NCBI RefSeq assembly: GCF_054482595.1
Contig: NZ_CM137008.1
Strand: one strand, 5' to 3'
DNA length: 64,000 nucleotides
Under the pieces are notes generated by a model, which was not told where the DNA came from, made no database searches, and saw only the letters and a program-made list of their open reading frames with translations. Position 1 is the stretch's first letter, and every line of letters starts with the position of its first letter. Shown piece by piece: positions 3,324-57,984 of this stretch. A program made the position numbers and the translations under genes.

Positions 3324-4532
3324 TCAGGCTGTCGCCTGAATCATTTCGGTGGGTTCCTGCTTCAACGGGCGGCCTGACTGCACCATCTCTCCACAGGCAA
3401 GAACGGCGTGCCCCGCCGCTAAAATGTTACGAGCGCCATTTACATCGGCGTTCGCTGTATATCCACATACCTGGCATCTGAATTTACTTTGTGACAGGCG
3501 GTTCTCTTTCGCTGTATGACCACAGTACGCGCAACGCTGGCTTGTATACGCTGGCGGAACAGCAAGCACCTGACCGCCACGCCAGAGCTGCTTGTACTCA
3601 AGCTGGCGGTGCATTTCATACCAGCCCTGATCCAGTATCGAACGGTTTAAACCTGATTTTGCCCGGACATTGCGCCCCGGCTGGCTGACCGTACCCGCTG
3701 CTGACTTTGACATGTTGCTGACCTTCAAATCCTCAATGACTATCATTGCGTGGTTTTTGCTGACGGCCGTTGTGACTTTGTGAAGGTAGTCCCTGCGGAT
3801 ATTTGCGATACAGGAATGCAGTCGCTGTATTTTGCGTTTCTGCTTCTGCCAGTTGTTGCTGAATTTGACCTTGCGGCTTAACTGTCGCTGAAGTCTCGCC
3901 AGCGTCTTCTGGTTTTTCTGAAAACTGTTTACAGGCTCAAAGACTGTGCCATCTGACAGCGTGGCGAGTTTAGCCACGCCAGCATCCAGCCCGACCATTG
4001 ATGCTGAAGGGTGAGCCGGAGTGGATACTTCACTTTCTGTCTGAATACTGATGTACCACTTACCGCAGGACTGGCTGACAGTGACATTTTTCACAACACC
4101 CGTGACCTGACGGCTGTTCCGGTAGCGCATCCAGCCCAGTTTCGGCAGAAAAATACGGCTGTTTTCCTGATCGAGCTTAACGCCCTGCGGGTAGCGGAAT
4201 GCATCATTCTGTCCCCGCTTTTTGAATCGGGGAAAAGCAGCCCGCTTCCGGAAGAAGTTTTTGTAAGCCCGCTCAAGGTCTTTCAGTGACTGTTGCAATG
4301 GCTGTGAGGGAGAATCTTTAAGCCATTGCGTTTCAGTGGCATTTTTCCACTCAACCAGCCAGGAAGCCATTTTCCCGTAAGGGATGTATTTATTACCGGC
4401 CTCATGATTCTCATTCTGACGTGCCAGAGCACGATTGAAAACGAAACGACATGCGCCTGCGAAGCGCCTCATTTCACACTCCTGTTGACCACCTGGTCTT
4501 AACTGGAATTTAAATGCCTGTAATCGTTTCAC
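3324..4532 (-). CDS. insQ: TnpB (OrfB) RNA-guided endonuclease of IS200/IS605 family
   Basis: 402-aa ORF with RuvC-like motifs [22 protein letters not shown] and zinc finger CAYCG...CQVCG. Confidence 0.9.
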
Positions 4533-4539
4533 AGGTCAA

Positions 4540-5046
4540 ATGATACTTTGGTCTGTGAAAAAAGAAACCGATATCCGGCGTGGAAGGCATTGTGTTTTCC
4601 TGATGCATGTTCACCTGGTCTTTGTCACCAGATACCGACGCCAGATTTTTGACCATGACGCGACAGAAAAACTACGCACTTACTTTTCAAATGTATGTGC
4701 TTATTTTGAAGCTGAACTGGTTGAAATGGATGGCGAACCAGATCACGTCCATTTGTTAATTAACTAACCTCCCAAACTGGCGATATCCAGTCTGGTAAAC
4801 AGCCTCAAAGGCGTATCGGGTAGGTTACTGCGACGAGATCGACCAGATATTGCAGTCAGGTATTACTACAAAGGCGTTTTGTGGAGTCCTGGCTATTTTG
4901 CCAGTAGCTGCGGAGGTGCGCCAATATCCGTCATCCGCCAATACATTGAACAACAGCAAACACCTGGTCAGGTGGAAAACCGCGCCTTATATCCCCGCCC
5001 TGAAGGATGGGGTTTTACGGCGCACCGGATAAAAAGCGCCATCTAA
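4540..5046 (+). pseudogene. IS200-type HuH/Y1 transposase TnpA interrupted by in-frame TAA at 4765-4767
   Basis: N-terminal part ...HVHLVFVTRYRRQIF...DGEPDHVHLLIN then TAA; same frame continues PPKLAISSLVNSLKGVSGRLL...YYKGVLWSPGYFASSCGGAPISVIRQYIEQQ to stop at 5044-5046. Confidence 0.7.
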
Positions 5047-15787: not shown

Positions 15788-16016
15788 CGACTAAAAGCCT
15801 CTTTGCGTCACATTTTTACAACAATTATTGCAGAGAAGATTAATGCCATTGGAATGAAGAGAGTAACGAATGGTTAAACTGGCTAACCCGAATGACGAAA
15901 AATTCTGGAAAACAGCACGCAATTTCGTCAGGTGATTATTTTCGTCCCTAAGGAAACCACATAGGATGCTCACGGGTGCCTGAGACTTTCTGTTTTCAGG
16001 CTAACCGGGAATCAGA

Positions 16017-16061
16017 AAGACGAAGGCCCCGACCGATATTTCTATCAACCGAGGCCAACGA

Positions 16062-16072
<11 letters not shown>
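16017..16072 (-). ncRNA. sokB: sokB antisense RNA of the hokB/mokB locus; position inferred, boundaries approximate
   Basis: Placed antisense to the mokB translation-initiation region by analogy with hok/sok architecture; no independent sequence recognition. Confidence 0.35.
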
Positions 16073-16269
<197 letters not shown>

Positions 16270-16684: not shown

Positions 16685-16748
16685 CTTCCGATGTAGACCC
16701 GTATTCTTCGCCTGTACCACGGGTCGGTTTTAGTACAGGCGTTTTCTT
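16685..16748 (+). ncRNA. rydC: RydC small RNA (Hfq-dependent, pseudoknot-forming)
   Basis: 64 nt CTTCCGATGTAGACCCGTATTCTTCGCCTGTACCACGGGTCGGTTTTAGTACAGGCGTTTTCTT matches the RydC sequence as I remember it; ends in hairpin plus U-tract. Confidence 0.8.
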
Positions 16749-17477: not shown

Positions 17478-18479
17478 ATGAGTAAAGTTGGTATTAACGG
17501 TTTTGGTCGTATCGGTCGACTGGTGTTGCGTCGATTACTTGAAGTCAAAAGCAACATAGACGTTGTCGCTATTAATGATCTTACTTCCCCAAAAATTCTC
17601 GCCTATCTGCTGAAACATGATTCAAACTATGGTCCGTTCCCCTGGAGCGTTGATTTTACGGAAGATTCACTTATCGTTGATGGGAAAAGTATCTCGGTTT
17701 ACGCCGAAAAAGAGGCTAAAAATATTCCGTGGAAAGCGAAAGGTGCAGAAATCATTGTCGAATGTACTGGCTTTTATACCTCCGCCGATAAATCGCAGGC
17801 GCATCTTGATGCTGGTGCGAAGAAGGTGTTGATTTCCGCTCCTGCCGGTGAAATGAAAACCATCGTTTATAACGTTAATGACGACACTCTGGATGGCAAC
17901 GATACCATTGTTTCCGTGGCGTCATGCACCACTAACTGCCTTGCGCCGATGGCCAAAGCCTTGCATGACAGTTTCGGGATAGAAGTCGGCACGATGACGA
18001 CCATTCATGCCTATACTGGCACCCAGTCACTGGTGGATGGCCCGCATGGTAAAGATTTACGTGCTTCACGCGCCGCGGCAGAAAATATCATTCCCCACAC
18101 TACGGGCGCGGCAAAAGCCATTGGTCTGGTGATCCCGGAACTGAGCGGCAAACTGAAAGGTCATGCGCAACGCGTGCCGGTGAAAACAGGTTCGGTCACT
18201 GAACTGGTATCGATTCTCGGAAAAAAAGTGACTGCCGAAGAGGTGAATAACGCACTTAAACAAGCAACCACCAATAACGAGTCATTTGGTTATACCGATG
18301 AAGAAATAGTCTCTTCCGATATCATTGGCAGCCATTTCGGTTCGGTGTTTGATGCCACGCAAACGGAAATTACCGCCGTGGGCGATTTACAACTGGTGAA
18401 AACGGTCGCCTGGTACGATAACGAATATGGCTTCGTCACGCAGCTTATTCGCACCCTCGAAAAATTCGCTAAACTCTGA
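17478..18479 (+). CDS. gapC: Glyceraldehyde-3-phosphate dehydrogenase GapC, intact 333-aa frame
   Basis: [19 protein letters not shown]..., catalytic SCTTNCLAP motif; continuous ORF. Confidence 0.9.
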
Positions 18480-33971: not shown

Positions 33972-34133
33972 CGCACCCTGCCCTGTAATAAAACGGATTA
34001 AGAAAAATCAGTATAGAAACGAAAAGAGATAAATAATGCGAAGGCGTAAACAAGATTTCTGGATGAGTAGCACTATTGTCCTGAAAGACACCAAAACATT
34101 AGACAGCAAAAGATAAGTCAAGCGTCGCATCCG

Positions 34134-34170
34134 GCAATAAAAAACCGCAACCTGTATCAGCGTTGCGGTT
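34134..34170 (-). terminator. Intrinsic terminator downstream of ydbA
   Basis: 9-bp stem aaccgcaac/gttgcggtt with 10-nt loop, followed on minus strand by UUUUAUU; about 20 nt after ydbA stop. Confidence 0.5.
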
Positions 34171-34190: not shown

Positions 34191-37100
34191 TTAGAACGTT
34201 TTCTTAAAGTTCAGCATCACGCCTTTGTCGCTGATGCCGTCCTCTTTCCAGTGATACGCATCCAGATTCAGCGAACTTTCTTTGCTACTGTACTTCACGC
34301 CGACGCTCGCCAGGCTGTTGATACCGCCGCCCTTCTGACCGTCATCGACGTTAAAGTGCTGGCTGCCTGCCCCTGCAAGGCTTGCCGTGCGCTGGCTCTT
34401 GCTGTAGCTCAGGTTCGGCCCGCCTTCCAGCGTCGCATTCGCGCTCCAGCCGCCTTTCCCTGCGTAGTCCAGTTTCAGCCCGACGATGCTGTCCACCGCC
34501 GTTTCGCTGCCACTGTTCATATTCAGGTTAAAGTCTCCGGCATTGCGCTCCTGATAGCCACCTTCCAGTGTGTGACGCAGTTTTACACCCGCATATGGCG
34601 TAACCTTCAGTCCTTCGCTCGGTTCGAAAGTCTTCGCCACTTCGCTGCGGAACTCCAGGTACTGCTGCTTCACGTCGGTATCAGCCGTTTTGTTTGTGTT
34701 GCTAAATGCAATCGAACGGCTACTGTCAAGGTTGTGAACGTCATAACGCAATGCGTTATTCCAGTTCATGCCGTTGTCGAAGGACATCTGGTGCTTCAGG
34801 CCAAAGAACTGGCTATAACCACCTGTGACGCCATTATCACCCGCTTTCTGCGCACCATCACCATCGAGACGAGCGATACCGTACTCCAGACTCATCGTCT
34901 GGCTTTCGCTCAGGTCGATGGTTTTACGCAATGCCAGCATGTCGTATTCGGTATTATTACCTAACTCGGCACGTGGATCGCCTTTCGCAACAACGTTGAA
35001 CGCCAGACCGTTACCCACCTTCGGCGCGGCATCCGCCAGCATGCTGAAGCGGTTGCTTAACACACGCGCTTCACGGAATACCGTGGTCGCCTGGCTACCG
35101 CTCACCTGCTTCAGGGCGCTATTCAGTTCAGCAGTGGTGCCCACGTTCAGGCTGGTATACAGCTCGTTATTGGTGTAACCCGCATCCAGTGCCTTCGCCA
35201 CATCGTTCACCGAAGCATCGGTCGCCACATCGGTGTAGGCGTTTTTGCTCATGATGACGTCAACGTTGCCGCTGGCATCGGTGCTGCCTTTGGCGGTCCA
35301 TACCACGGACGTTGAGGTGATGGCATCGGCGTCGGTCAGGTTGATGCCTTCCACCACGTTGTCGAAACTGACCGTGGTGTCTGCCGTACCGGCGGCGAAA
35401 CCGGTGTTGATCCCGACACCATTCATGCTGGCGTTGTTAACCTTCAGTTTACCGGCGCTGCCGTCAACGTTGGTACCGACGATATAGCCGTTGAGGTTGT
35501 TACTGCTGCCATCGCTACTACCGCTATCAGTCGTTTCACTGAAAGGTGAAGTGGTGTAAGTGTTTGGCATGTCCGGCAACGTGTAGTCGGTGTAATGCAC
35601 TTCGGTATTGTTACCGCTGTTGCCGTTCACCCCTTCCACATTCACGCTGTCGCCCTGCTTAATCAACCCCGAACCAGTCACGCCGTCGGCAATCACCACC
35701 GTACCGTTGTTAACGATATGACCTTCTGTGCCCAGTACGCTGAACGCAAACGAGTCGTTAGCAAAAATATTGATCGTGCCGTTGTTCTCAATTACCGCAT
35801 CGGCGGTGGCATTGGCATCCAGTTGCATACCAGTCAATCCGGTATCGGTGGTGCCTTCGGTGCCGAGATTGATAACGCCGTTGTTAACCAGTTGTGCGTT
35901 TTTATCACCTTCCATCGCCACGGCATTGTTGCCGCTGATGTTCATCACGCCATCGTTGAGGGCAACATAGTTGTTGTGGGTGAATTTAACTGCGCTGGCG
36001 TTGTCTTTATCGAAGTTAATCACCCCGCCATCCTGGTTCCACAGGAAGGCATCGCTTTCTGTCGCACCAGCGGTACTTACCGCCACAGTGACTTTCGCAT
36101 CCACCACGCCCTTGTTAATAAACTGGCTGGCGCCGTCGTCATAGTGAATAGCGCCCGCGCCAAGTGCGGCATCCAGCGTCATTTCACCGGTGTTATATAA
36201 CGTGGCGTTAGCATTGCTTCCCTGGAAGCGAATGGCGTTTTTACTGTTATCAAGGATGAGCTTGCCGCTGTTGTTGAACGTTGATTGGTCGTCAATATCC
36301 AGCGTCCCGGCATTGTTATTTTCATCCTGATAACCCATTTTCCAGGTCCCCGCGTTATTCACCACCGCAGAGTTATAGAGAATGGCACCTTTACGCGCCT
36401 CGCCGCCTGCAAGGTTATTGAATACAGCATCGCCCTGGGCGTTAACGCGCGCCGACGCGATACCGCTGTTATTCACCGTGCCATCGTTAAGCTGTAAGGT
36501 TGACAGTGAACCGGTATTATTAATTACCGCGTTGCTGTTTTTCTCAATTTTTACGACGTCATTAAGCGTTCCGTTGTTATTGAAGGTTCCTCCTTCCAGA
36601 GTCACCGTGTTCAATACACCTTCATTGGTTAACGCACCGCCTTCATTCACGACGATGGCTGAGCTAATGGTTCCGCTCGACTCGTTAACCAGCGCACCAT
36701 TTTCGAGTATCCTGATCGTTCCATTTTTAACAGCACCCGCACTGGTGACATCCCCGTTGATAATCGCACCTGACGATAATAATACGGTCTCACCCGCAGA
36801 ACTTAATACATCGCCATCATCATATAAATCGGCAATATAATTATCCGTTGGATTATATTCATCGGCCCCCTGGCAAACGCCAAAGGTACAAATTGTGCCA
36901 TAGTTGATAATAAGCCCAGTGCCATCGTTATAGAATGCCTGACCATTTTCCGCGTTAATGTTGATTACGCCTGTCTGGTCATTAATGGCGGTGCCTTCGT
37001 GATAAACCGCCATGCCGACGAGTTTATTCACACCGAGAGAATCGTTGTAATTTTCATTTTTCTCCAGGTTGATGGTTCCCTGGTTAATGACCGTATTAGT

Positions 37101-40085
37101 ATTCCCATACGCCGCCATCCCCGCACCGGCGTTGTAGACAGTAATCACACCATTCTCGTGGTTGGTTGCCGTGGCTTTAGTTAATGCCCCATTATAGGCA
37201 TCGGTACCTGAAGCCATTCCCACACCGAAATCTTTCGCCGTGCTATTTGCAACATTATTACGCAGCGATGTTTCATCATTTTCATCGACCCACAGCGTAT
37301 CCAGGGTGATTTGCCCTTCGTTATCCGCGGTTGATTTATCGATAGCCAACATCCCCACGCTGCCACGACCATACATCTCAATAATACCCGTTTCGCCGTT
37401 CAGAATGGATGACGAGTAGCTGGCAAGCATACCTGTCAGCCCTAATGCCTTGTTATTGAAAGAGGTACCATCAGACAAGTTCCACTCTGCCGGATAATTC
37501 AGCACACTGTGCTGATTCATCATTTTGGTGGTCATGGTACCATTGTTAACGCCAATCCCACCGTATTCAACGTCAAAGACTTTTGGTGCCGGGTCGGTAC
37601 CAAAATCGTACATCGCCAGGCCAATGGATCCGTTATTGATTACCGTTGAATCTTTATTCCAGGCAGCCGCAAAACCGATATTTTTCAGTTCCACTTCACC
37701 GTTGTTTGTCGCCTTCGCACCAGAATCAATACTAATGGTGGATAACGCTACACGATAATAATAAGTGAAAGAATCCACATCACTCATATCAAACGTTGCG
37801 TCAGCGCCAATCTCCAGCTCCGCGCCATGGCTCAACTGAATGAGATTTTCGAACCCCAGCGGGAACTCGCCGCTGATGGTTGACTCACCATTCAGGTAGA
37901 CCGAGGAATGCCCATCAACGTTAATAAGCGGTGTGTCTCCGATACCACGACGAGATGCGGCAGGTTTTGAGCCATCATCCATGACATTTTTTTCACCGAC
38001 AAAATGAACACCGCCATTAAGCGTAAAGGTATTGTCATCGCCAGCAATAACAATACCCGCAATGTGTTCCTGAGCACCGTCGTAACTCGCATAGGAACGC
38101 GACGTGGTTTCACTATCAGCAACAACGGTTAACTGACCATCCAGCGTGACGTCGTTGTTGTCACCGCTGATATTTACCCCGGTTGAGGGATTAAAGAAGT
38201 AAGGCTGCGCATTATCAGCTTTCTGATCTTTATCAACCAGAATACTGCCCGCTATTTCGATAGTATTACCATCACCCGAAACATTAACACCTGTCGCTTC
38301 TTGCCCTGTCACATTCAGCCCATAAGTCGACAGCGTCATGTTGTTATTATCACCAGAGACATCAAGACCGGTGGAGAAATCCCCAACGTCTAACCCGCCC
38401 GCAAGTGAAATATTGGCTTTATCGCCTGCAACGCTGATACCGGTTCCGGCGTTGGTCGCGGTAATATCACCAACGTTAACAAATGTCGCATTATTACCGT
38501 CGATCTGAATGCCGATTGCATTTTCACCTGTAGCGGCCTGACCAACATTGAGGTCACCCATGTTGATCACGCTGACACCATCACCATCAAGCAGCATGCC
38601 GATAGAGTTTTCCTCGACGACCGTAATATTACCTTTGTTGCTGACGAACGTGTTGTTGCCGACAACGTCAATACCGTGCGCACCGCCGCTAACGTATAAG
38701 TCGCCTTCCTGTTTGATGATGGCATCGTCACCGACAACTTTCGAGCCAGTGGAATTCGCACCGTCAACGGTCATAGTACCTTTATTATCAACCCGCGCAT
38801 TATCGCCATTGATAAGGCTACCCGTACCGCCATTGGTGATGGTCGAGTCGCCCGCAGTGTTTAGCTTGGTATTATCGCCATTGATGATTACCGCGGTACC
38901 GCCATCAACTTCCGTCTCGCCATTATTGTTAATGGTGATATTGTCGCCGGTGAGTATACCGACAACCGAGCCTTCTCCGATGGCCGTCGTTTTGCCGTCG
39001 TTGTTGAGGGTGATGTTGTCACCATCAACCGTCATGACAGTACCGCCATTCAGCGCCGTGTTGCCGCCCTGATCGGTGATGATCGCGTTACCAAACTCAA
39101 TCGCATTCCCGGTTGTGCCGTCAACAACGACGCCGGCCTCTTTAGTGATGTGGATGAGTCCATCATCGTCGTAACTCCAGGTGATGCCACCTGAGGTATT
39201 TACGCCATCAAAGACAACGGTGTTGCTGTCGTCATGGACTGTCCAGGACTTAACTATCGTCTCCTTGCCCTCAGGCGCCGTTAAGGTGTAGCTCCCATCG
39301 GCATTTTGGCTGTAGGTAAAGGTGGTTTCGCGAATTTTGACGGTTTTCGCGTCCTGATCCCAGGTTACGTCATTTTTATAGACGACAGGATCGTGTTTAA
39401 CCGGGGTATCGCCACCATCGTCTGGCGGAACAGGCGTATCACCGCCGTCGTCTGGAACTGGCGTATCACCGCCATCATCTGGTGGAACCGGCGTATCACC
39501 GCCGTCATCTGGTGGAACCGGCATATCACCGCCGTCATCTGGCGGAACTGGCGTATCACCGCCGTCATCTGGCGGAACTGGCGTATCACCGCCGTCATCT
39601 GGCGGAACCGGCGTATCATCGCCGTCATCTGGCGGAACTGGCGTATCACCGCCGTCATCTGGCGGAACTGGCGTATCACCGCCGTCATCTGGCGGAACCG
39701 GCGTATCACCGCCGTCATCTGGCGGAACCGGCGTATCACCGCCGTCGTCTGGCGGAACAGGCGTATCACCGCCATCATCCGGAACTGGGGAGTTATTATG
39801 GTGGTGATTGTCATCGTCACTTAAGGTATATATAGCAATTCCCGTAGCTACTGCAGCAAGACCTGCAGCTGCCCATGGTAAAACTGCACTATCTTTATTT
39901 TCTCTGCACTCCGCGGATAAATTTTCTAGCTGCTCTTTGCTCAGGGAATGAATATTTGCCGGACATGTTATCTTACTGGACTTACGTGTTTTTTCGGTTG
40001 AGTCGGGTATTGAAGTATCCGCAGCCCATGTCTGGCTACTTAACGCCATGGCAACACAAACAGACAATAATTTTTTCCTTTGCAT
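34191..40085 (-). CDS. ydbA: Giant autotransporter (type Va) YdbA, uninterrupted: signal peptide, Pro/Asp/Gly-rich decapeptide repeat stalk, beta-helical passenger, C-terminal beta-barrel ending in Phe
   Basis: Track ORF 34191..40124 trimmed to MQRKKLLSVCVAMALSSQTWA (SD AAGGA 8 nt upstream); passenger full of GxNxT/GDNxxV beta-helix repeats; terminal ...VMLNFKKTF. Confidence 0.85.
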   Translation of the reverse strand: MQRKKLLSVCVAMALSSQTWAADTSIPDSTEKTRKSSKITCPANIHSLSKEQLENLSAECRENKDSAVLPWAAAGLAAVATGIAIYTLSDDDNHHHNNSPVPDDGGDTPVPPDDGGDTPVPPDDGGDTPVPPDDGGDTPVPPDDGGDTPVPPDDGDDTPVPPDDGGDTPVPPDDGGDTPVPPDDGGDMPVPPDDGGDTPVPPDDGGDTPVPDDGGDTPVPPDDGGDTPVKHDPVVYKNDVTWDQDAKTVKIRETTFTYSQNADGSYTLTAPEGKETIVKSWTVHDDSNTVVFDGVNTSGGITWSYDDDGLIHITKEAGVVVDGTTGNAIEFGNAIITDQGGNTALNGGTVMTVDGDNITLNNDGKTTAIGEGSVVGILTGDNITINNNGETEVDGGTAVIINGDNTKLNTAGDSTITNGGTGSLINGDNARVDNKGTMTVDGANSTGSKVVGDDAIIKQEGDLYVSGGAHGIDVVGNNTFVSNKGNITVVEENSIGMLLDGDGVSVINMGDLNVGQAATGENAIGIQIDGNNATFVNVGDITATNAGTGISVAGDKANISLAGGLDVGDFSTGLDVSGDNNNMTLSTYGLNVTGQEATGVNVSGDGNTIEIAGSILVDKDQKADNAQPYFFNPSTGVNISGDNNDVTLDGQLTVVADSETTSRSYASYDGAQEHIAGIVIAGDDNTFTLNGGVHFVGEKNVMDDGSKPAASRRGIGDTPLINVDGHSSVYLNGESTISGEFPLGFENLIQLSHGAELEIGADATFDMSDVDSFTYYYRVALSTISIDSGAKATNNGEVELKNIGFAAAWNKDSTVINNGSIGLAMYDFGTDPAPKVFDVEYGGIGVNNGTMTTKMMNQHSVLNYPAEWNLSDGTSFNNKALGLTGMLASYSSSILNGETGIIEMYGRGSVGMLAIDKSTADNEGQITLDTLWVDENDETSLRNNVANSTAKDFGVGMASGTDAYNGALTKATATNHENGVITVYNAGAGMAAYGNTNTVINQGTINLEKNENYNDSLGVNKLVGMAVYHEGTAINDQTGVININAENGQAFYNDGTGLIINYGTICTFGVCQGADEYNPTDNYIADLYDDGDVLSSAGETVLLSSGAIINGDVTSAGAVKNGTIRILENGALVNESSGTISSAIVVNEGGALTNEGVLNTVTLEGGTFNNNGTLNDVVKIEKNSNAVINNTGSLSTLQLNDGTVNNSGIASARVNAQGDAVFNNLAGGEARKGAILYNSAVVNNAGTWKMGYQDENNNAGTLDIDDQSTFNNSGKLILDNSKNAIRFQGSNANATLYNTGEMTLDAALGAGAIHYDDGASQFINKGVVDAKVTVAVSTAGATESDAFLWNQDGGVINFDKDNASAVKFTHNNYVALNDGVMNISGNNAVAMEGDKNAQLVNNGVINLGTEGTTDTGLTGMQLDANATADAVIENNGTINIFANDSFAFSVLGTEGHIVNNGTVVIADGVTGSGLIKQGDSVNVEGVNGNSGNNTEVHYTDYTLPDMPNTYTTSPFSETTDSGSSDGSSNNLNGYIVGTNVDGSAGKLKVNNASMNGVGINTGFAAGTADTTVSFDNVVEGINLTDADAITSTSVVWTAKGSTDASGNVDVIMSKNAYTDVATDASVNDVAKALDAGYTNNELYTSLNVGTTAELNSALKQVSGSQATTVFREARVLSNRFSMLADAAPKVGNGLAFNVVAKGDPRAELGNNTEYDMLALRKTIDLSESQTMSLEYGIARLDGDGAQKAGDNGVTGGYSQFFGLKHQMSFDNGMNWNNALRYDVHNLDSSRSIAFSNTNKTADTDVKQQYLEFRSEVAKTFEPSEGLKVTPYAGVKLRHTLEGGYQERNAGDFNLNMNSGSETAVDSIVGLKLDYAGKGGWSANATLEGGPNLSYSKSQRTASLAGAGSQHFNVDDGQKGGGINSLASVGVKYSSKESSLNLDAYHWKEDGISDKGVMLNFKKTF
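39401..39790. repeat. Tandem array of about 13 units of a 30-bp repeat (one 27-bp unit) inside ydbA, encoding PPDDGGDTPV
   Basis: ggcggaacYggcgtatcaccgccgtcatct repeated head-to-tail in exact 30-nt register from 39481 to 39780 with degenerate flanking units. Confidence 0.9.
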
Positions 40086-40492
40086 ATAAAATTCCTTAGA
40101 TCTAGACCGTGCGTAACAAGCCATGCAGAATTTGAAGATAAATCGTAGTAAATATTCATAGTGAAATAAGCAATAAAGAAATGCTTATATAATTCACAAA
40201 ATCAATATTAAAATCAGGCAAGTAAAAGCATACAAAAAAACAGTTGATGGAATTATATTCCACAAAAAACTCACTTCAATCTAAAAATTAACGACAAAAA
40301 ACAAAAACACACTAATAATTCATTGACGCTGCATATATATTTTGTGATTACATATATATTGGTAATGATTTGTTATTTAAGGGAAGGATATATAAGGTTT
40401 TTGTAGAAATACCCACGGTAATTAAGCATGCTAACGTCAGTTTAAATACTGTAAAAGATCATTAATAGATACATTTTGTAGCCAACTATAAT

Positions 40493-40819
40493 TTATTTGC
40501 GCAACCATTTACCATTAACTCCCTGAACATATTGCCCCGACTTCGCGCGAGCAACAAGCTTTTGTCCAGCCAGTTTGGCTATCTCTTTAGTGGATACATT
40601 ATTTTGCTTTGCCAGTTGTTGGTAACTATGGTTACGAGCTTCATTAATATCTTTTACTAATGCCTGTGTTTCGGCATCCGTTTGTAGCGCCACCAGGTAA
40701 CCGTTAAGCGTTTCACCTACCCGCCCCTGACTTCTGGCTTCGTTCAGGGTTAAAGCCATTGCACTGTCGCTCATCAGGCCAATGGCCCATACAGCTATGA
40801 GTAATGTTCTTTTCATCAT
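40493..40819 (-). CDS. ydbL: DUF1318-family periplasmic protein YdbL
   Basis: Track ORF trimmed to MMKRTLLIAVWAIGLMSDSAMA... (108 aa). Confidence 0.8.
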   Translation of the reverse strand: MMKRTLLIAVWAIGLMSDSAMALTLNEARSQGRVGETLNGYLVALQTDAETQALVKDINEARNHSYQQLAKQNNVSTKEIAKLAGQKLVARAKSGQYVQGVNGKWLRK

Positions 40820-48900: not shown

Positions 48901-49436
48901 CCGGTGGTCAGGCGTCGAAAGCGACACCGCTGGGTGCAGTAACTAAATTTGGCGAGCACGGCAAACGTAAAGCGCGTAAAGATCTTGGCGTCAGTATGAT
49001 GATGTACGGTCATGTTTATGTGGCGCAGATTTCTCTCGGCGCGCAACTGAACCAGACGGTGAAAGCGATTCAGGAAGCGGAAGCGTATCCGGGACCATCG
49101 CTGATCATTGCTTATAGCCCGTGTGAAGAGCATGGTTACGATCTGGCACTCAGCCATGACCAGATGCGCCAACTCACAGCTACCGGCTTCTGGCCGCTAT
49201 ATCGCTTCGATCCGCGTCGTGCCGATGAAGGCAAACTGCCGCTGGCGCTGGATTCACGCCCGCCGTCAGAAGCACTGGAAGAAACGTTACTTCACGAGCA
49301 ACGTTTCCGTCGTCTGAATTCGCAGCAGCCAGAAGTGGCAGAACAGTTATGGAAAGATGCTGCAGCTGATTTGCAAAAACGCTATGACTTCCTGGCACAA
49401 ATGGCCGGAAAAGCGGAAAAAAGCAACACCGATTAA
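45912..49436 (+). CDS. ydbK: Pyruvate:flavodoxin/ferredoxin oxidoreductase (PFOR)
   Basis: 1174-aa ORF with two 4Fe-4S ferredoxin motifs (CTQCNHCVAACP, CTGCNLCVEVCP) and TPP-binding region. Confidence 0.95.
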   Translation: MITIDGNGAVASVAFRTSEVIAIYPITPSSTMAEQADAWAGNGLKNVWGDTPRVVEMQSEAGAIATVHGALQTGALSTSFTSSQGLLLMIPTLYKLAGELTPFVLHVAARTVATHALSIFGDHSDVMAVRQTGCAMLCAANVQEAQDFALISHIATLKSRVPFIHFFDGFRTSHEINKIVPLADDTILDLMPQAEIDAHRARALNPEHPVIRGTSANPDTYFQSREATNPWYNAVYDHVEQAMNDFSAATGRQYQPFEYYGHPQAERVIILMGSAIGTCEEVVDELLTRGEKVGVLKVRLYRPFSAKHLLQALPGSVRSVAVLDRTKEPGAQAEPLYLDVMTALAEAFNNGERETLPRVIGGRYGLSSKEFGPDCVLAVFAELNAAKPKARFTVGIYDDVTNLSLPLPENTLPNSAKLEALFYGLGSDGSVSATKNNIKIIGNSTPWYAQGYFVYDSKKAGGLTVSHLRVSEQPIRSAYLISQADFVGCHQLQFIDKYQMAERLKPGGIFLLNTPYSADEVWSRLPQEVQAVLNQKKARFYVINAAKIARECGLAARINTVMQMAFFHLTQILPGDSALAELQGAIAKSYSSKGQDLVERNWQALALARESVEEVPLQPVNPHSANRPPVVSDAAPDFVKTVTAAMLAGLGDALPVSALPPDGTWPMGTTRWEKRNIAEEIPIWKEELCTQCNHCVAACPHSAIRAKVVPPEAMENAPASLHSLDVKSRDMRGQKYVLQVAPEDCTGCNLCVEVCPAKDRQNPEIKAINMMSRLEHVEEEKINYDFFLNLPEIDRSKLERIDIRTSQLITPLFEYSGACSGCGETPYIKLLTQLYGDRMLIANATGCSSIYGGNLPSTPYTTDANGRGPAWANSLFEDNAEFGLGFRLTVDQHRVRVLRLLDQFADKIPAELLTALKSDATPEVRREQVAALRQQLNDVAEAHELLRDADALVEKSIWLIGGDGWAYDIGFGGLDHVLSLTENVNILVLDTQCYSNTGGQASKATPLGAVTKFGEHGKRKARKDLGVSMMMYGHVYVAQISLGAQLNQTVKAIQEAEAYPGPSLIIAYSPCEEHGYDLALSHDQMRQLTATGFWPLYRFDPRRADEGKLPLALDSRPPSEALEETLLHEQRFRRLNSQQPEVAEQLWKDAAADLQKRYDFLAQMAGKAEKSNTD

Positions 49437-49464
49437 ATGCTCTGGATAAGGATTATCCAATTCT

Positions 49465-49500
49465 AAAAAAAAGCCCGGACGACTGTTCGGGCTTGTCTTT
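49465..49500. terminator. Bidirectional intrinsic terminator shared by ydbK (+) and micC (-)
   Basis: Hairpin gcccggacgactgttcgggc flanked by A8 upstream and ttgtcttttt downstream. Confidence 0.6.
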
Positions 49501-49574
49501 TTATATGTTGGAAAATCAGTGGCAATGCAATGGCCCAACAGAAAATAAAATCTGTGACAATAAAGGCATATAAC
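49466..49574 (-). ncRNA. micC: MicC small RNA (porin-mRNA repressor)
   Basis: Minus strand reads GTTATATGCCTTTATTGTCACAGATTTTATTTTCTGTTGGGCCATTGCATTGCC...GCCCGAACAGTCGTCCGGGCTTTTTTT, matching MicC as I remember it; lies between ydbK and ompN. Confidence 0.8.
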
Positions 49575-49801
49575 CCGCGCAGAATAACGTATAGAAAATT
49601 AAAAGTATAATTTTTATTTTGTATGTATTATCTTCGATACATTCACCAGACTTATTATCATTTCAGAGGAATTATTTGATTAAGGTTTTACTTAAGGCGT
49701 AACAAATGATATTTATCAGCTAACTGAACTTCTCCTTTAGGATGTTTTCACTCCCCGAAATGGGGATAAAAGGCAAATAAAATAACTAAAGGATTTATTC
49801 A

Positions 49802-50935
49802 ATGAAAAGCAAAGTACTGGCACTTTTAATTCCTGCCCTGCTCGCCGCAGGTGCTGCACATGCAGCCGAAGTTTATAATAAAGACGGCAACAAATTAGAT
49901 CTGTATGGCAAAGTTGATGGCCTGCATTATTTTTCTGATAATTCAGCGAAAGATGGCGACCAGAGCTATGCGCGTCTGGGTTTTAAAGGCGAAACCCAAA
50001 TTAACGATCAACTTACTGGCTACGGTCAATGGGAATACAATATTCAGGCAAACAACACTGAATCTTCAAAAAACCAGTCATGGACCCGTCTGGCATTTGC
50101 CGGACTGAAATTTGCAGATTACGGTTCTTTCGATTACGGACGTAATTATGGCGTAATGTACGACATCGAAGGCTGGACCGATATGCTGCCTGAATTTGGC
50201 GGTGACTCTTATACCAATGCAGACAACTTTATGACTGGTCGAGCCAATGGCGTCGCGACTTATCGTAATACTGATTTCTTCGGTCTGGTAAATGGTCTGA
50301 ACTTCGCGGTGCAGTATCAAGGTAACAACGAAGGAGCCAGTAATGGTCAGGAAGGCACCAACAACGGACGTGATGTTCGCCATGAAAACGGTGACGGCTG
50401 GGGTCTTTCCACAACATATGATTTAGGCATGGGCTTTAGCGCTGGTGCGGCATACACATCTTCTGACCGCACCAATGACCAGGTTAACCATACTGCGGCG
50501 GGTGGTGATAAAGCAGACGCGTGGACTGCTGGGCTAAAATACGATGCTAACAATATTTACCTGGCAACCATGTATTCAGAAACGCGTAATATGACCCCGT
50601 TTGGCGACAGCGATTATGCTGTTGCAAACAAAACCCAGAACTTTGAAGTCACTGCACAGTACCAGTTTGATTTTGGTCTGCGTCCGGCAGTCTCTTTCCT
50701 GATGTCTAAAGGCCGTGACCTGCACGCTGCCGGTGGTGCAGACAACCCGGCAGGTGTTGATGATAAAGATCTGGTTAAATACGCCGATGTTGGCGCGACT
50801 TACTATTTCAATAAAAACATGTCCACCTATGTTGACTATAAAATCAACCTGTTGGATGAAGATGACAGTTTCTACGCTGCCAACGGCATCTCTACCGATG
50901 ATATTGTCGCTTTAGGTCTGGTTTATCAGTTCTAA
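49802..50935 (+). CDS. ompN: Outer membrane porin OmpN (OmpC/F family)
   Basis: 377-aa ORF with signal peptide [21 protein letters not shown] and C-terminal ...GLVYQF. Confidence 0.9.
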
Positions 50936-54382: not shown

Positions 54383-54505
54383 CAAAAAAAAGCCGACTCA
54401 TCAAAGTCGGCGTCGTACGAATCAATTGTGCTATGCAGTAATTCAAAAAAGGAAGTAAGACAATATGGAGCGCAACGCCCATCGCTTGACGTTGCATTCA
54501 CCTGC
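54383..54505 (-). ncRNA. fnrS: FnrS small RNA (FNR-activated)
   Basis: Minus strand reads GCAGGTGAATGCAACGTCAAGCGATGGGCGTTGCGCTCC...GCCGACTTTGATGAGTCGGCTTTTTTTT, matching FnrS as I remember it; terminator hairpin 54392-54411 plus U8. Confidence 0.8.
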
Positions 54506-57881: not shown

Positions 57882-57976
57882 CACCGGCGCAGAGGAGACA
57901 ATGCCGGATTTAAGACGCGGATGCACTGCTGTGTGTACTATAGAGTCTGGCGGATGTCGACAGACTCTATTTTTTT
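57882..57976 (+). ncRNA. mcaS: McaS (IsrA) small RNA
   Basis: sigma70-like promoter TTGGCA-N18-TATAAC (57846-57875), transcript ACCGGCGCAGAGGAGACAATGCCGG...TAGAGTCTGGCGGATGTCGACAGACTCTA plus T7; matches McaS as I remember it. Confidence 0.75.
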
Positions 57977-57984
57977 ATGCAGTT

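Follow-up and report, generated by a model that had tools for sequence, protein, structure and literature searches.

The stretch of DNA analysed here, referred to below as the window, comprises 64,000 nucleotides of contig NZ_CM137008.1 (RefSeq assembly GCF_054482595.1), and its minus strand carries a large gene of the YdbA/BigA family of type Va autotransporters at the ydbA locus. The gene is preceded by ydbH-ynbE-ydbL and followed by pdxI-ydbD. The list of open reading frames (ORFs) and their translations revealed a single uninterrupted frame of 1964 codons at 34191-40085 (minus strand), whose product of 1964 amino acids (aa) ends in KKTF and is free of stops throughout. In the six-frame list, the longest ORF at the locus runs from 34191 to 40124 on the same strand (1977 aa), but the 13-codon N-terminal extension starting at the ATG at 40124 was rejected, as it has no ribosome-binding site and the homologues begin with MQRK. 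The ATG at 40085-40083 is the credible start and was preferred because AAGGA stands 7 bases upstream, because homologues start with MQRKKLLS, and because RefSeq uses this start for the identical coding sequence (CDS) of E. coli XH990. Among the 120 closest database homologues, 102 begin with MQRKKLLS and another 17 with MQRKNLLS, the start being conserved in 119 of the 120. Plus-strand ORFs that overlap the gene (at most 237 aa) were taken as shadows of the long minus-strand frame, and an ORF of about 5.9 kb at 49% GC cannot have arisen by chance. A preliminary description of this DNA, made from the sequence alone, had claimed an uninterrupted 1964-aa frame, and neither a frameshift nor a stop was found to contradict it: the whole 6.3-kb locus shows 100% DNA identity to the complete chromosome of XH990, whose annotation matches our ORF coordinates across the first 50 kb of the window (which must thus derive from XH990 or a very near relative), and a 3.2-kb allele-specific core of the passenger recurs at or near 100% identity in two more independent complete genomes.

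To describe the product, we combined domain searches with predicted structures. When every PDB chain was searched with the complete protein (phmmer), no match was obtained at E <= 1, and a fold comparison of AlphaFold2 models was used in its place. The model of aa 235-1329, built from 32 family sequences, reached a mean predicted local distance difference test score (pLDDT) of 88.4 and consists of an unbroken run of short strands, three per turn; over both models, the beta-helix is about 1150 residues long. When the passenger model was compared with the PDB using Foldseek, the best match was Fap2 (E = 4e-5), followed by Ag43, pertactin, TibA and the tailspike and pectate-lyase beta-helices, all of which are right-handed beta-helices. 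The model confidence and these matches bear out the beta-helical passenger of the preliminary description. The second model, covering aa 1330-1964 (pLDDT 87.8), begins with the last part of the beta-helix, after which come a low-confidence linker, a beta-sandwich and a helical region; the barrel that follows has about 12 strands. The barrel strands, some 12 long ones at aa 1694-1962, have pLDDT values above 90, and a helix at aa ~1668-1686 immediately precedes the first of them. Pfam places the Autotransporter domain (PF03797) at aa 1738-1935 with E = 3.4e-18. In the Foldseek comparison of the C-terminal model with the PDB, the best matches were EstA, AaaA, NalP (TM-score 0.68 on the target), EspP, Hbp and BrkA, the top matches all being type Va translocators, and the alignments with NalP and EspP cover the entire chains of both. 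The C-terminal end reads MLNFKKTF, and its terminal F is nearly invariant in the last column of the family alignment. Thus, the C-terminal domain passed the autotransporter searches both in sequence and in fold, in agreement with the beta-barrel ending in Phe of the preliminary description.

The N-terminal part of the protein is composed of a signal peptide, a short module and a proline-rich repeat. By inspection, the signal peptide can be divided into MQRKK, LLSVCVAMAL and SSQTWA, with the cut before AD, a division in keeping with the n-h-c layout and with the -3/-1 rule; a signal peptide had been claimed before, and the n-region RKK, the hydrophobic core and the TWA/AD cleavage motif agree with it. 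The module between the signal peptide and the proline-rich repeats corresponds to window positions 39822-40016 (aa 24-88) and contains a Cys pair and a second hydrophobic segment, with a His-rich patch behind it. No Pfam family matched this module (Cys pair, hydrophobic segment and His-rich patch). In 22 of the 36 full-length family representatives, the CP..C pair occurs together with a second Gly/Ala-rich hydrophobic segment (~aa 63-90) that is followed by His-/Pro-rich sequence, and the module is a hallmark of the family. The hydrophobic segment at aa 67-88 has a Kyte-Doolittle maximum of 1.86 and a summed Hessa-scale value of about +2.5 kcal/mol, values that are borderline for membrane integration and consistent with passage through SecYEG. 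An inner-membrane anchor at this position was considered and rejected, since a stop-transfer helix behind a cleaved signal peptide would strand the barrel in the cytoplasm. The repeat that follows consists of copies of PPDDGGDTPV, the number of which ranges from 2 to 14 in close homologues, whose protein lengths differ in 10-aa steps. A "repeat stalk" had been proposed for this protein; the repeats are indeed present, in 13 copies, but they do not form a membrane-proximal stalk. Because they sit at the N-terminus of the passenger, the end that lies away from the cell, they are a tether at the tip and not a stalk that lifts the passenger.

Table 1. Features of the autotransporter gene and its flanks, with positions in the window, in the direction of transcription.
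Feature	Position	Strand	Basis
AT-rich spacer between ydbL and the autotransporter gene, 27% GC; presumed promoter/regulatory region	40086..40492	-	Composition
Best sigma-70-like match, TTGAAG-16-TATAAT, 10 of 12, ~165 nucleotides upstream of the ATG	40252..40279	-	Consensus scan
Shine-Dalgarno-like AAGGA, 7 nucleotides before the ATG	40093..40097	-	Read from sequence
Complete CDS, YdbA/BigA-family type Va autotransporter	34191..40085	-	ORF list, translation; identical CDS in E. coli XH990 (WP_065311097.1)
Sec signal peptide, aa 1-23 (MQRKKLLSVCVAMALSSQTWA, then AD)	40017..40085	-	Inspection of translation; start conserved in 119 of 120 close homologues
Conserved Cys pair, C41-P...C60	39906..39965	-	Cys positions; CP..C shared by the family consensus and 22 of 36 full-length representatives
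Second hydrophobic Gly/Ala-rich segment, aa 67-88, then DDDNHHH	39822..39887	-	Hydropathy; family-wide conservation
Proline-rich tandem repeat, 13 x PPDDGGDTPV, aa 102-229, in frame	39399..39782	-	Tandem Repeats Finder, 30 bp x 12.8 (39399-39779); regular-expression count
BigA_N domain (PF25784), aa 234-314	39144..39386	-	Pfam, E = 6e-33
Right-handed beta-helix passenger, aa ~320-1475	35661..39128	-	AlphaFold2 models, Foldseek; BigA_3rd and BigA_4th on close homologues
Codon Gln1072 (CAG); TAG in the O157:H7/O55:H7 allele, hence split ORFs	36870..36872	-	Pairwise alignment with O157:H7 strain 86-24
BigA_beta sandwich domain (PF25783), aa 1533-1616, with a low-confidence linker (aa ~1507-1526) in front	35238..35489	-	Pfam, E = 5.9e-24; AlphaFold2
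Helical linker region, aa ~1617-1686, last helix abutting the barrel	35028..35237	-	DSSP of AlphaFold2 model
C-terminal ~12-strand autotransporter beta-barrel, aa ~1694-1964, terminal Phe	34194..35006	-	Pfam, AlphaFold2, Foldseek
Intrinsic-terminator hairpin and U-run, starting 19 nucleotides after the stop codon	34136..34172	-	RNA fold, -19.3 kcal/mol, z = -3.4

The 407-bp spacer upstream of the gene had been singled out as AT-rich, and its composition agrees: its GC content of 27%, against 49.4% for the window, falls in the lowest 0.07% of all 407-bp windows, and A/T tracts occur at 32 per kb, compared with 12 per kb in the window. H-NS silencing of the gene is plausible from this base composition. 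With up to two mismatches allowed, the H-NS high-affinity motif TCGATAAATT has 4 sites in the spacer, compared with 1.4 in composition-matched shuffles, 6% of which reach 4, so that the excess is not significant. Promoter-like sites were fewer in the spacer than in its shuffles in our consensus scan. No credible small ORF of at least 20 aa was found in the spacer, and no credible Rfam family was found in or adjoining the gene. Downstream, the terminator was located by reading and folding the sequence, having been missed by the promoter/terminator consensus scan. Directly past it, window positions 34100-34135 (minus strand) hold the sequence GCCGGATGCGACGCT, which we take to resemble part of a repetitive extragenic palindromic element. 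On the other side, ydbH-ynbE-ydbL lie on the same strand as the gene with no obvious terminator, and read-through into the autotransporter gene is conceivable. In K-12, the non-homologous paaY/ydbA spacer has been listed as an H-NS-bound "promoter island" (PMC3661553).

A signal peptide, a PF03797 barrel, a terminal Phe and a beta-helix passenger are all present, as in type Va autotransporters, and BigA_N (PF25784) and BigA_beta (PF25783) flank the beta-helix, as in the BigA/YdbA family defined in Pfam. According to a precomputed table, all of the 120 closest homologues carry BigA_N, BigA_3rd (PF27417), BigA_4th (PF27415) and BigA_beta. The sole NCBIfam match was auto_BigA (NF033178), the family of the Salmonella-type BigA proper; its best stretch, aa 1323-1964, covers the C-terminal third only, and the score of 1083.7 bits did not reach the curated cut-off of 3400 bits. 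Because of this score, the window protein is regarded as a relative within the family and not as BigA itself. Salmonella BigA, a "putative surface-exposed virulence protein", has the same Pfam domain set in the same order, and its gene presumably lies at a different locus from that of the window gene. Like the window protein, Ag43, AIDA-I, TibA and pertactin are secreted by the type Va route and have a passenger that forms a right-handed beta-helix, their fold matches being weak (E 5e-3 to 7e-2). However, the passenger in the window is two to three times longer than theirs, and the protein has, in addition, the BigA_N and BigA_beta domains, a proline-rich N-terminal tether and a barrel closer to the NalP/EstA type. 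Fap2 of Fusobacterium nucleatum (PDB 9qe7), a giant autotransporter adhesin with a very long rod-like beta-helix, is the best fold match of the passenger, but it belongs to another phylum, is only 13% identical with a TM-score of 0.19, and has no accessory domain in common with the window protein. EhaC was considered as a published name for the gene and was dropped, since the paper gives no link to ydbA; we take EhaC to be a yfaL homologue. Our fold results agree with those of Celik et al. on the barrel, which these authors grouped with the NalP-type barrels and proteases, while calling the BigA passenger AIDA-I-like (PMC3419190). The gene itself is already known: an identical RefSeq protein (WP_065311097.1) exists, its domain families are curated in Pfam, and full-length ydbA has been described from many strains in the literature.

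To clarify how the gene relates to ydbA of K-12, we compared the two loci. The preliminary description gave ydbA of K-12 as split by insertions of IS2 and IS30, and this is the case in W3110, where ydbA consists of two pseudogene fragments (ydbA_1 and ydbA_2) separated by the two elements. It had also placed the window gene at the position of ydbA, and the genes downstream, pdxI(ydbC)-ydbD-ynbABCD, are indeed the same in the window and XH990, in O157 and in K-12. The two genes are collinear and have the same architecture and size, the reconstructed K-12 protein being about 2007 aa long; the N-terminal module is also kept in K-12, with a signal peptide, the Cys pair, the hydrophobic segment and DDDHHH, whereas the long PPDDGGDTPV array is missing there. 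However, the window gene is not K-12 ydbA without its insertions, as had been implied. The protein is 34% identical to fragment 1 (its first ~780 aa) and 70% identical to fragment 2. Measured per 100 aa, the identity stays between 11% and 71% as far as aa 1400 and lies between 79% and 99% beyond that point, with values of 96-99% only in the last ~360 aa, and with megablast K-12 aligns to the last 1.86 kb only (88.8%). The flanks also differ. The fea/tynA/paa cluster that lies between ydbL and ydbA in K-12 is absent from the window (40086-40816), where ydbL runs straight into the AT-rich spacer. A BLASTN comparison (word size 7) of 815 bp upstream of the start with 931 bp upstream of K-12 ydbA gave chance-level matches only, and the promoter regions of the two genes are unrelated. 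Thus, the window gene is a divergent allele at the ydbA locus, intact where the K-12 copy is interrupted. The ydbA region has been described as a zone of genomic heterogeneity (PMC4951805).

The closest counterpart of this allele was found in O157:H7 and O55:H7 strains. They carry the same passenger allele (96.3% DNA identity over the gene in strain 86-24), the same AT-rich upstream spacer and the same order of ydbL, the autotransporter gene and pdxI without paa. However, the gene is split in these strains into two annotated ORFs (WP_001303278.1 and WP_001001996.1) by the nonsense codon given in Table 1, and strain 86-24 also has 180 bp less, which corresponds to six of the 10-aa repeats. The window gene is thus the intact counterpart of the O157:H7/O55:H7 nonsense allele. 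The synonymous divergence (dS) between the window and O157 was 0.55 in the barrel segment (34194-35006), compared with 0.06-0.10 elsewhere in the gene. This value, together with the identity gradient against K-12, in which the barrel reaches 96-99%, indicates a recombination mosaic within the gene. The 3.2-kb allele-specific core was detected in 372 of 5426 complete E. coli genomes, most carriers being O157:H7 or O55:H7. The AT-rich spacer was found in 374 genomes; because this number nearly matches that of the core, the spacer and the allele appear to travel together. When 60 rows were taken at even spacing from the carrier ranking, 9 had a single intact CDS, about 85% of the sampled carriers being split.

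Across the family as a whole, intact genes are not rare, contrary to what the preliminary description had implied: full-length homologues of 1844-1986 aa form more than 100 clusters at 90% identity, and full-length ydbA has been reported in about 42% of phylogroup A strains (PMC4951805). A search with the C-terminal 1200 aa against 1.84 billion representative proteins returned 213 clusters at E <= 1e-3, a number small enough to indicate a compact family. The members that were looked up come from E. coli, E. albertii, Enterobacter and Citrobacter, the distant ones from Microvirgula. On a contig of GCA_032071645.1 (positions 749-2544), a 252-aa ORF containing BigA_N abuts a 347-aa ORF with the barrel only, which suggests a family member collapsed by a large internal deletion of the passenger. 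We also estimated the selective constraint on the gene. The ratio of nonsynonymous to synonymous substitution rates (dN/dS), calculated by the Nei-Gojobori method against two other intact alleles, was 0.08-0.10 for the whole gene and 0.08-0.11 for the passenger. The values between intact alleles illustrate that this is a maintained coding gene and that purifying selection has acted on its protein.

Taken together, we consider it very probable that the window carries an intact chromosomal gene for a classical, monomeric (type Va) autotransporter of the BigA/YdbA family, situated at the ydbA locus in an E. coli strain without the fea/tynA/paa island. By analogy with type Va biology, the precursor would be exported by Sec and its signal peptide cut after Ala23. 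The beta-barrel assembly machinery would then insert the C-terminal ~270 residues into the outer membrane as a 12-strand barrel with the preceding helix in its pore, and the passenger of about 1650 residues would be threaded out with its C-terminus first and fold vectorially. The resulting rod would present, from the cell outward, the beta-sandwich, the ~1150-residue beta-helix and the BigA_N domain, and its tip, far from the cell, would carry the proline-rich repeat together with the short N-terminal module. The role assigned to the protein follows from its fold relatives (Fap2, Ag43, TibA and pertactin) and from the family name; on these grounds, it most likely serves as an adhesin or aggregation factor displayed on the cell surface, with a reach that would vary with the copy number of the repeat. 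The expression of the gene in laboratory culture is probably low, because its promoter would lie in very AT-rich DNA of the kind bound by H-NS.

Several observations weigh against this interpretation. First, our literature searches found no experiment on the function of YdbA or BigA, the latter appearing in genome comparisons only as a putative adhesin or a pseudogene. Second, no match to AIDA, pertactin, PATR or other named adhesin repeat families was obtained in Pfam, even at independent E-values of up to 10. Third, a second hydrophobic segment such as that at aa 67-88 is not usually expected in a protein that has to pass completely through SecYEG. Fourth, the H-NS motif count, not being significant, adds no evidence beyond AT-richness. 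Finally, the gene has been inactivated repeatedly in other lineages, by IS2 and IS30 in K-12 and by a nonsense codon in O157:H7/O55:H7, which indicates that it is dispensable in at least some niches.

These independent inactivations also speak for a scenario in which the gene is intact but effectively cryptic, that is, silent, dispensable and decaying, with no contribution to the phenotype of the strain. The split state of about 85% of the sampled allele carriers (a single CDS in 9 of 60 rows), the extreme AT-richness of the upstream DNA and the fact that the promoter evidence amounts to one consensus match point in the same direction. However, the dN/dS of 0.08-0.10 between intact alleles testifies to long-term purifying selection, many intact full-length copies persist in E. 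coli, E. albertii, Enterobacter and Citrobacter, and the changes in repeat number are all in frame; moreover, silence in the laboratory would not imply silence in the host. We regard a cryptic gene as unlikely. It seems considerably less probable still that the passenger is an effector, toxin or enzyme released by cleavage from the barrel after secretion, and not an adhesin. Structurally, the barrel is closest to those of NalP and EstA, whose passengers are enzymes, and the BigA barrel was grouped with NalP-type proteases by Celik et al. (PMC3419190), but these authors describe the BigA passenger as AIDA-I-like, no catalytic domain was matched in Pfam or NCBIfam, the entire passenger models as a beta-helix with small beta domains, and its fold matches are the adhesins Fap2, Ag43, TibA and pertactin. 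The last explanation, that the apparent intactness is an artefact of sequencing or assembly such as a collapsed repeat or a missed frameshift, can practically be set aside: the gene does contain a 380-bp near-perfect tandem repeat prone to short-read mis-assembly, but errors there would shift the length by multiples of 30 bp and leave the frame unbroken, the homologues align end to end, and the 6.3-kb locus and the 3.2-kb core recur in the complete genome of XH990 (100% identity) and in two further independent complete genomes (~100%), respectively.

Within the interpretation as a surface-displayed autotransporter, the N-terminal module might have a function of its own. The disulfide-capable Cys pair, the Gly/Ala-rich hydrophobic helix, the His-rich patch and the proline-rich tether of variable length could together form a functional unit where the rod ends farthest from the cell, able to insert into a target membrane of the host or of a neighbouring bacterium. 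This idea is a long shot. A parallel would presumably be the VacA autotransporter toxin, whose N-terminal GxxxG hydrophobic region we liken to a membrane-inserting N-terminal module of the YdbA/BigA proteins.

Some features elsewhere in the window were also recorded. An intact gene for a 333-aa type I glyceraldehyde-3-phosphate dehydrogenase lies at 17478-18479 on the plus strand and is annotated as "gap" in XH990; its counterpart gapC is, we assume, a pseudogene in K-12. At 3324-5046, an intact insQ/TnpB-family gene adjoins an IS200/IS605 tnpA that is annotated in XH990 as a pseudogene with an internal stop. Matches at the Rfam gathering score were obtained for sok (with hokB; 15974-16125), RydC (16685-16748), MicC (49457-49577), FnrS (54388-54505) and McaS (57883-57978). 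The MicC match lies between nifJ and ompN, within the only other patch of the window with a GC content of 34% or less (49393-49951).

The presence, absence and intactness of ydbA across E. coli have already been described, and the finding matters little as it stands. Something new might be found at this locus only in the N-terminal module, with its conserved hydrophobic segment on a proline-rich tether at the distal end: if the module does insert into membranes, the number of repeats would tune its reach, and the YdbA/BigA proteins would be something other than simple adhesins. BigA/YdbA is often listed as a "virulence protein" in genome papers on Salmonella and E. coli, and no characterisation was found in the literature searched. 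The practical value of the gene described here is that it provides a clean, intact template of an allele that is a pseudogene in O157:H7, a template that could serve when the function of the BigA/YdbA family is first put to the test.

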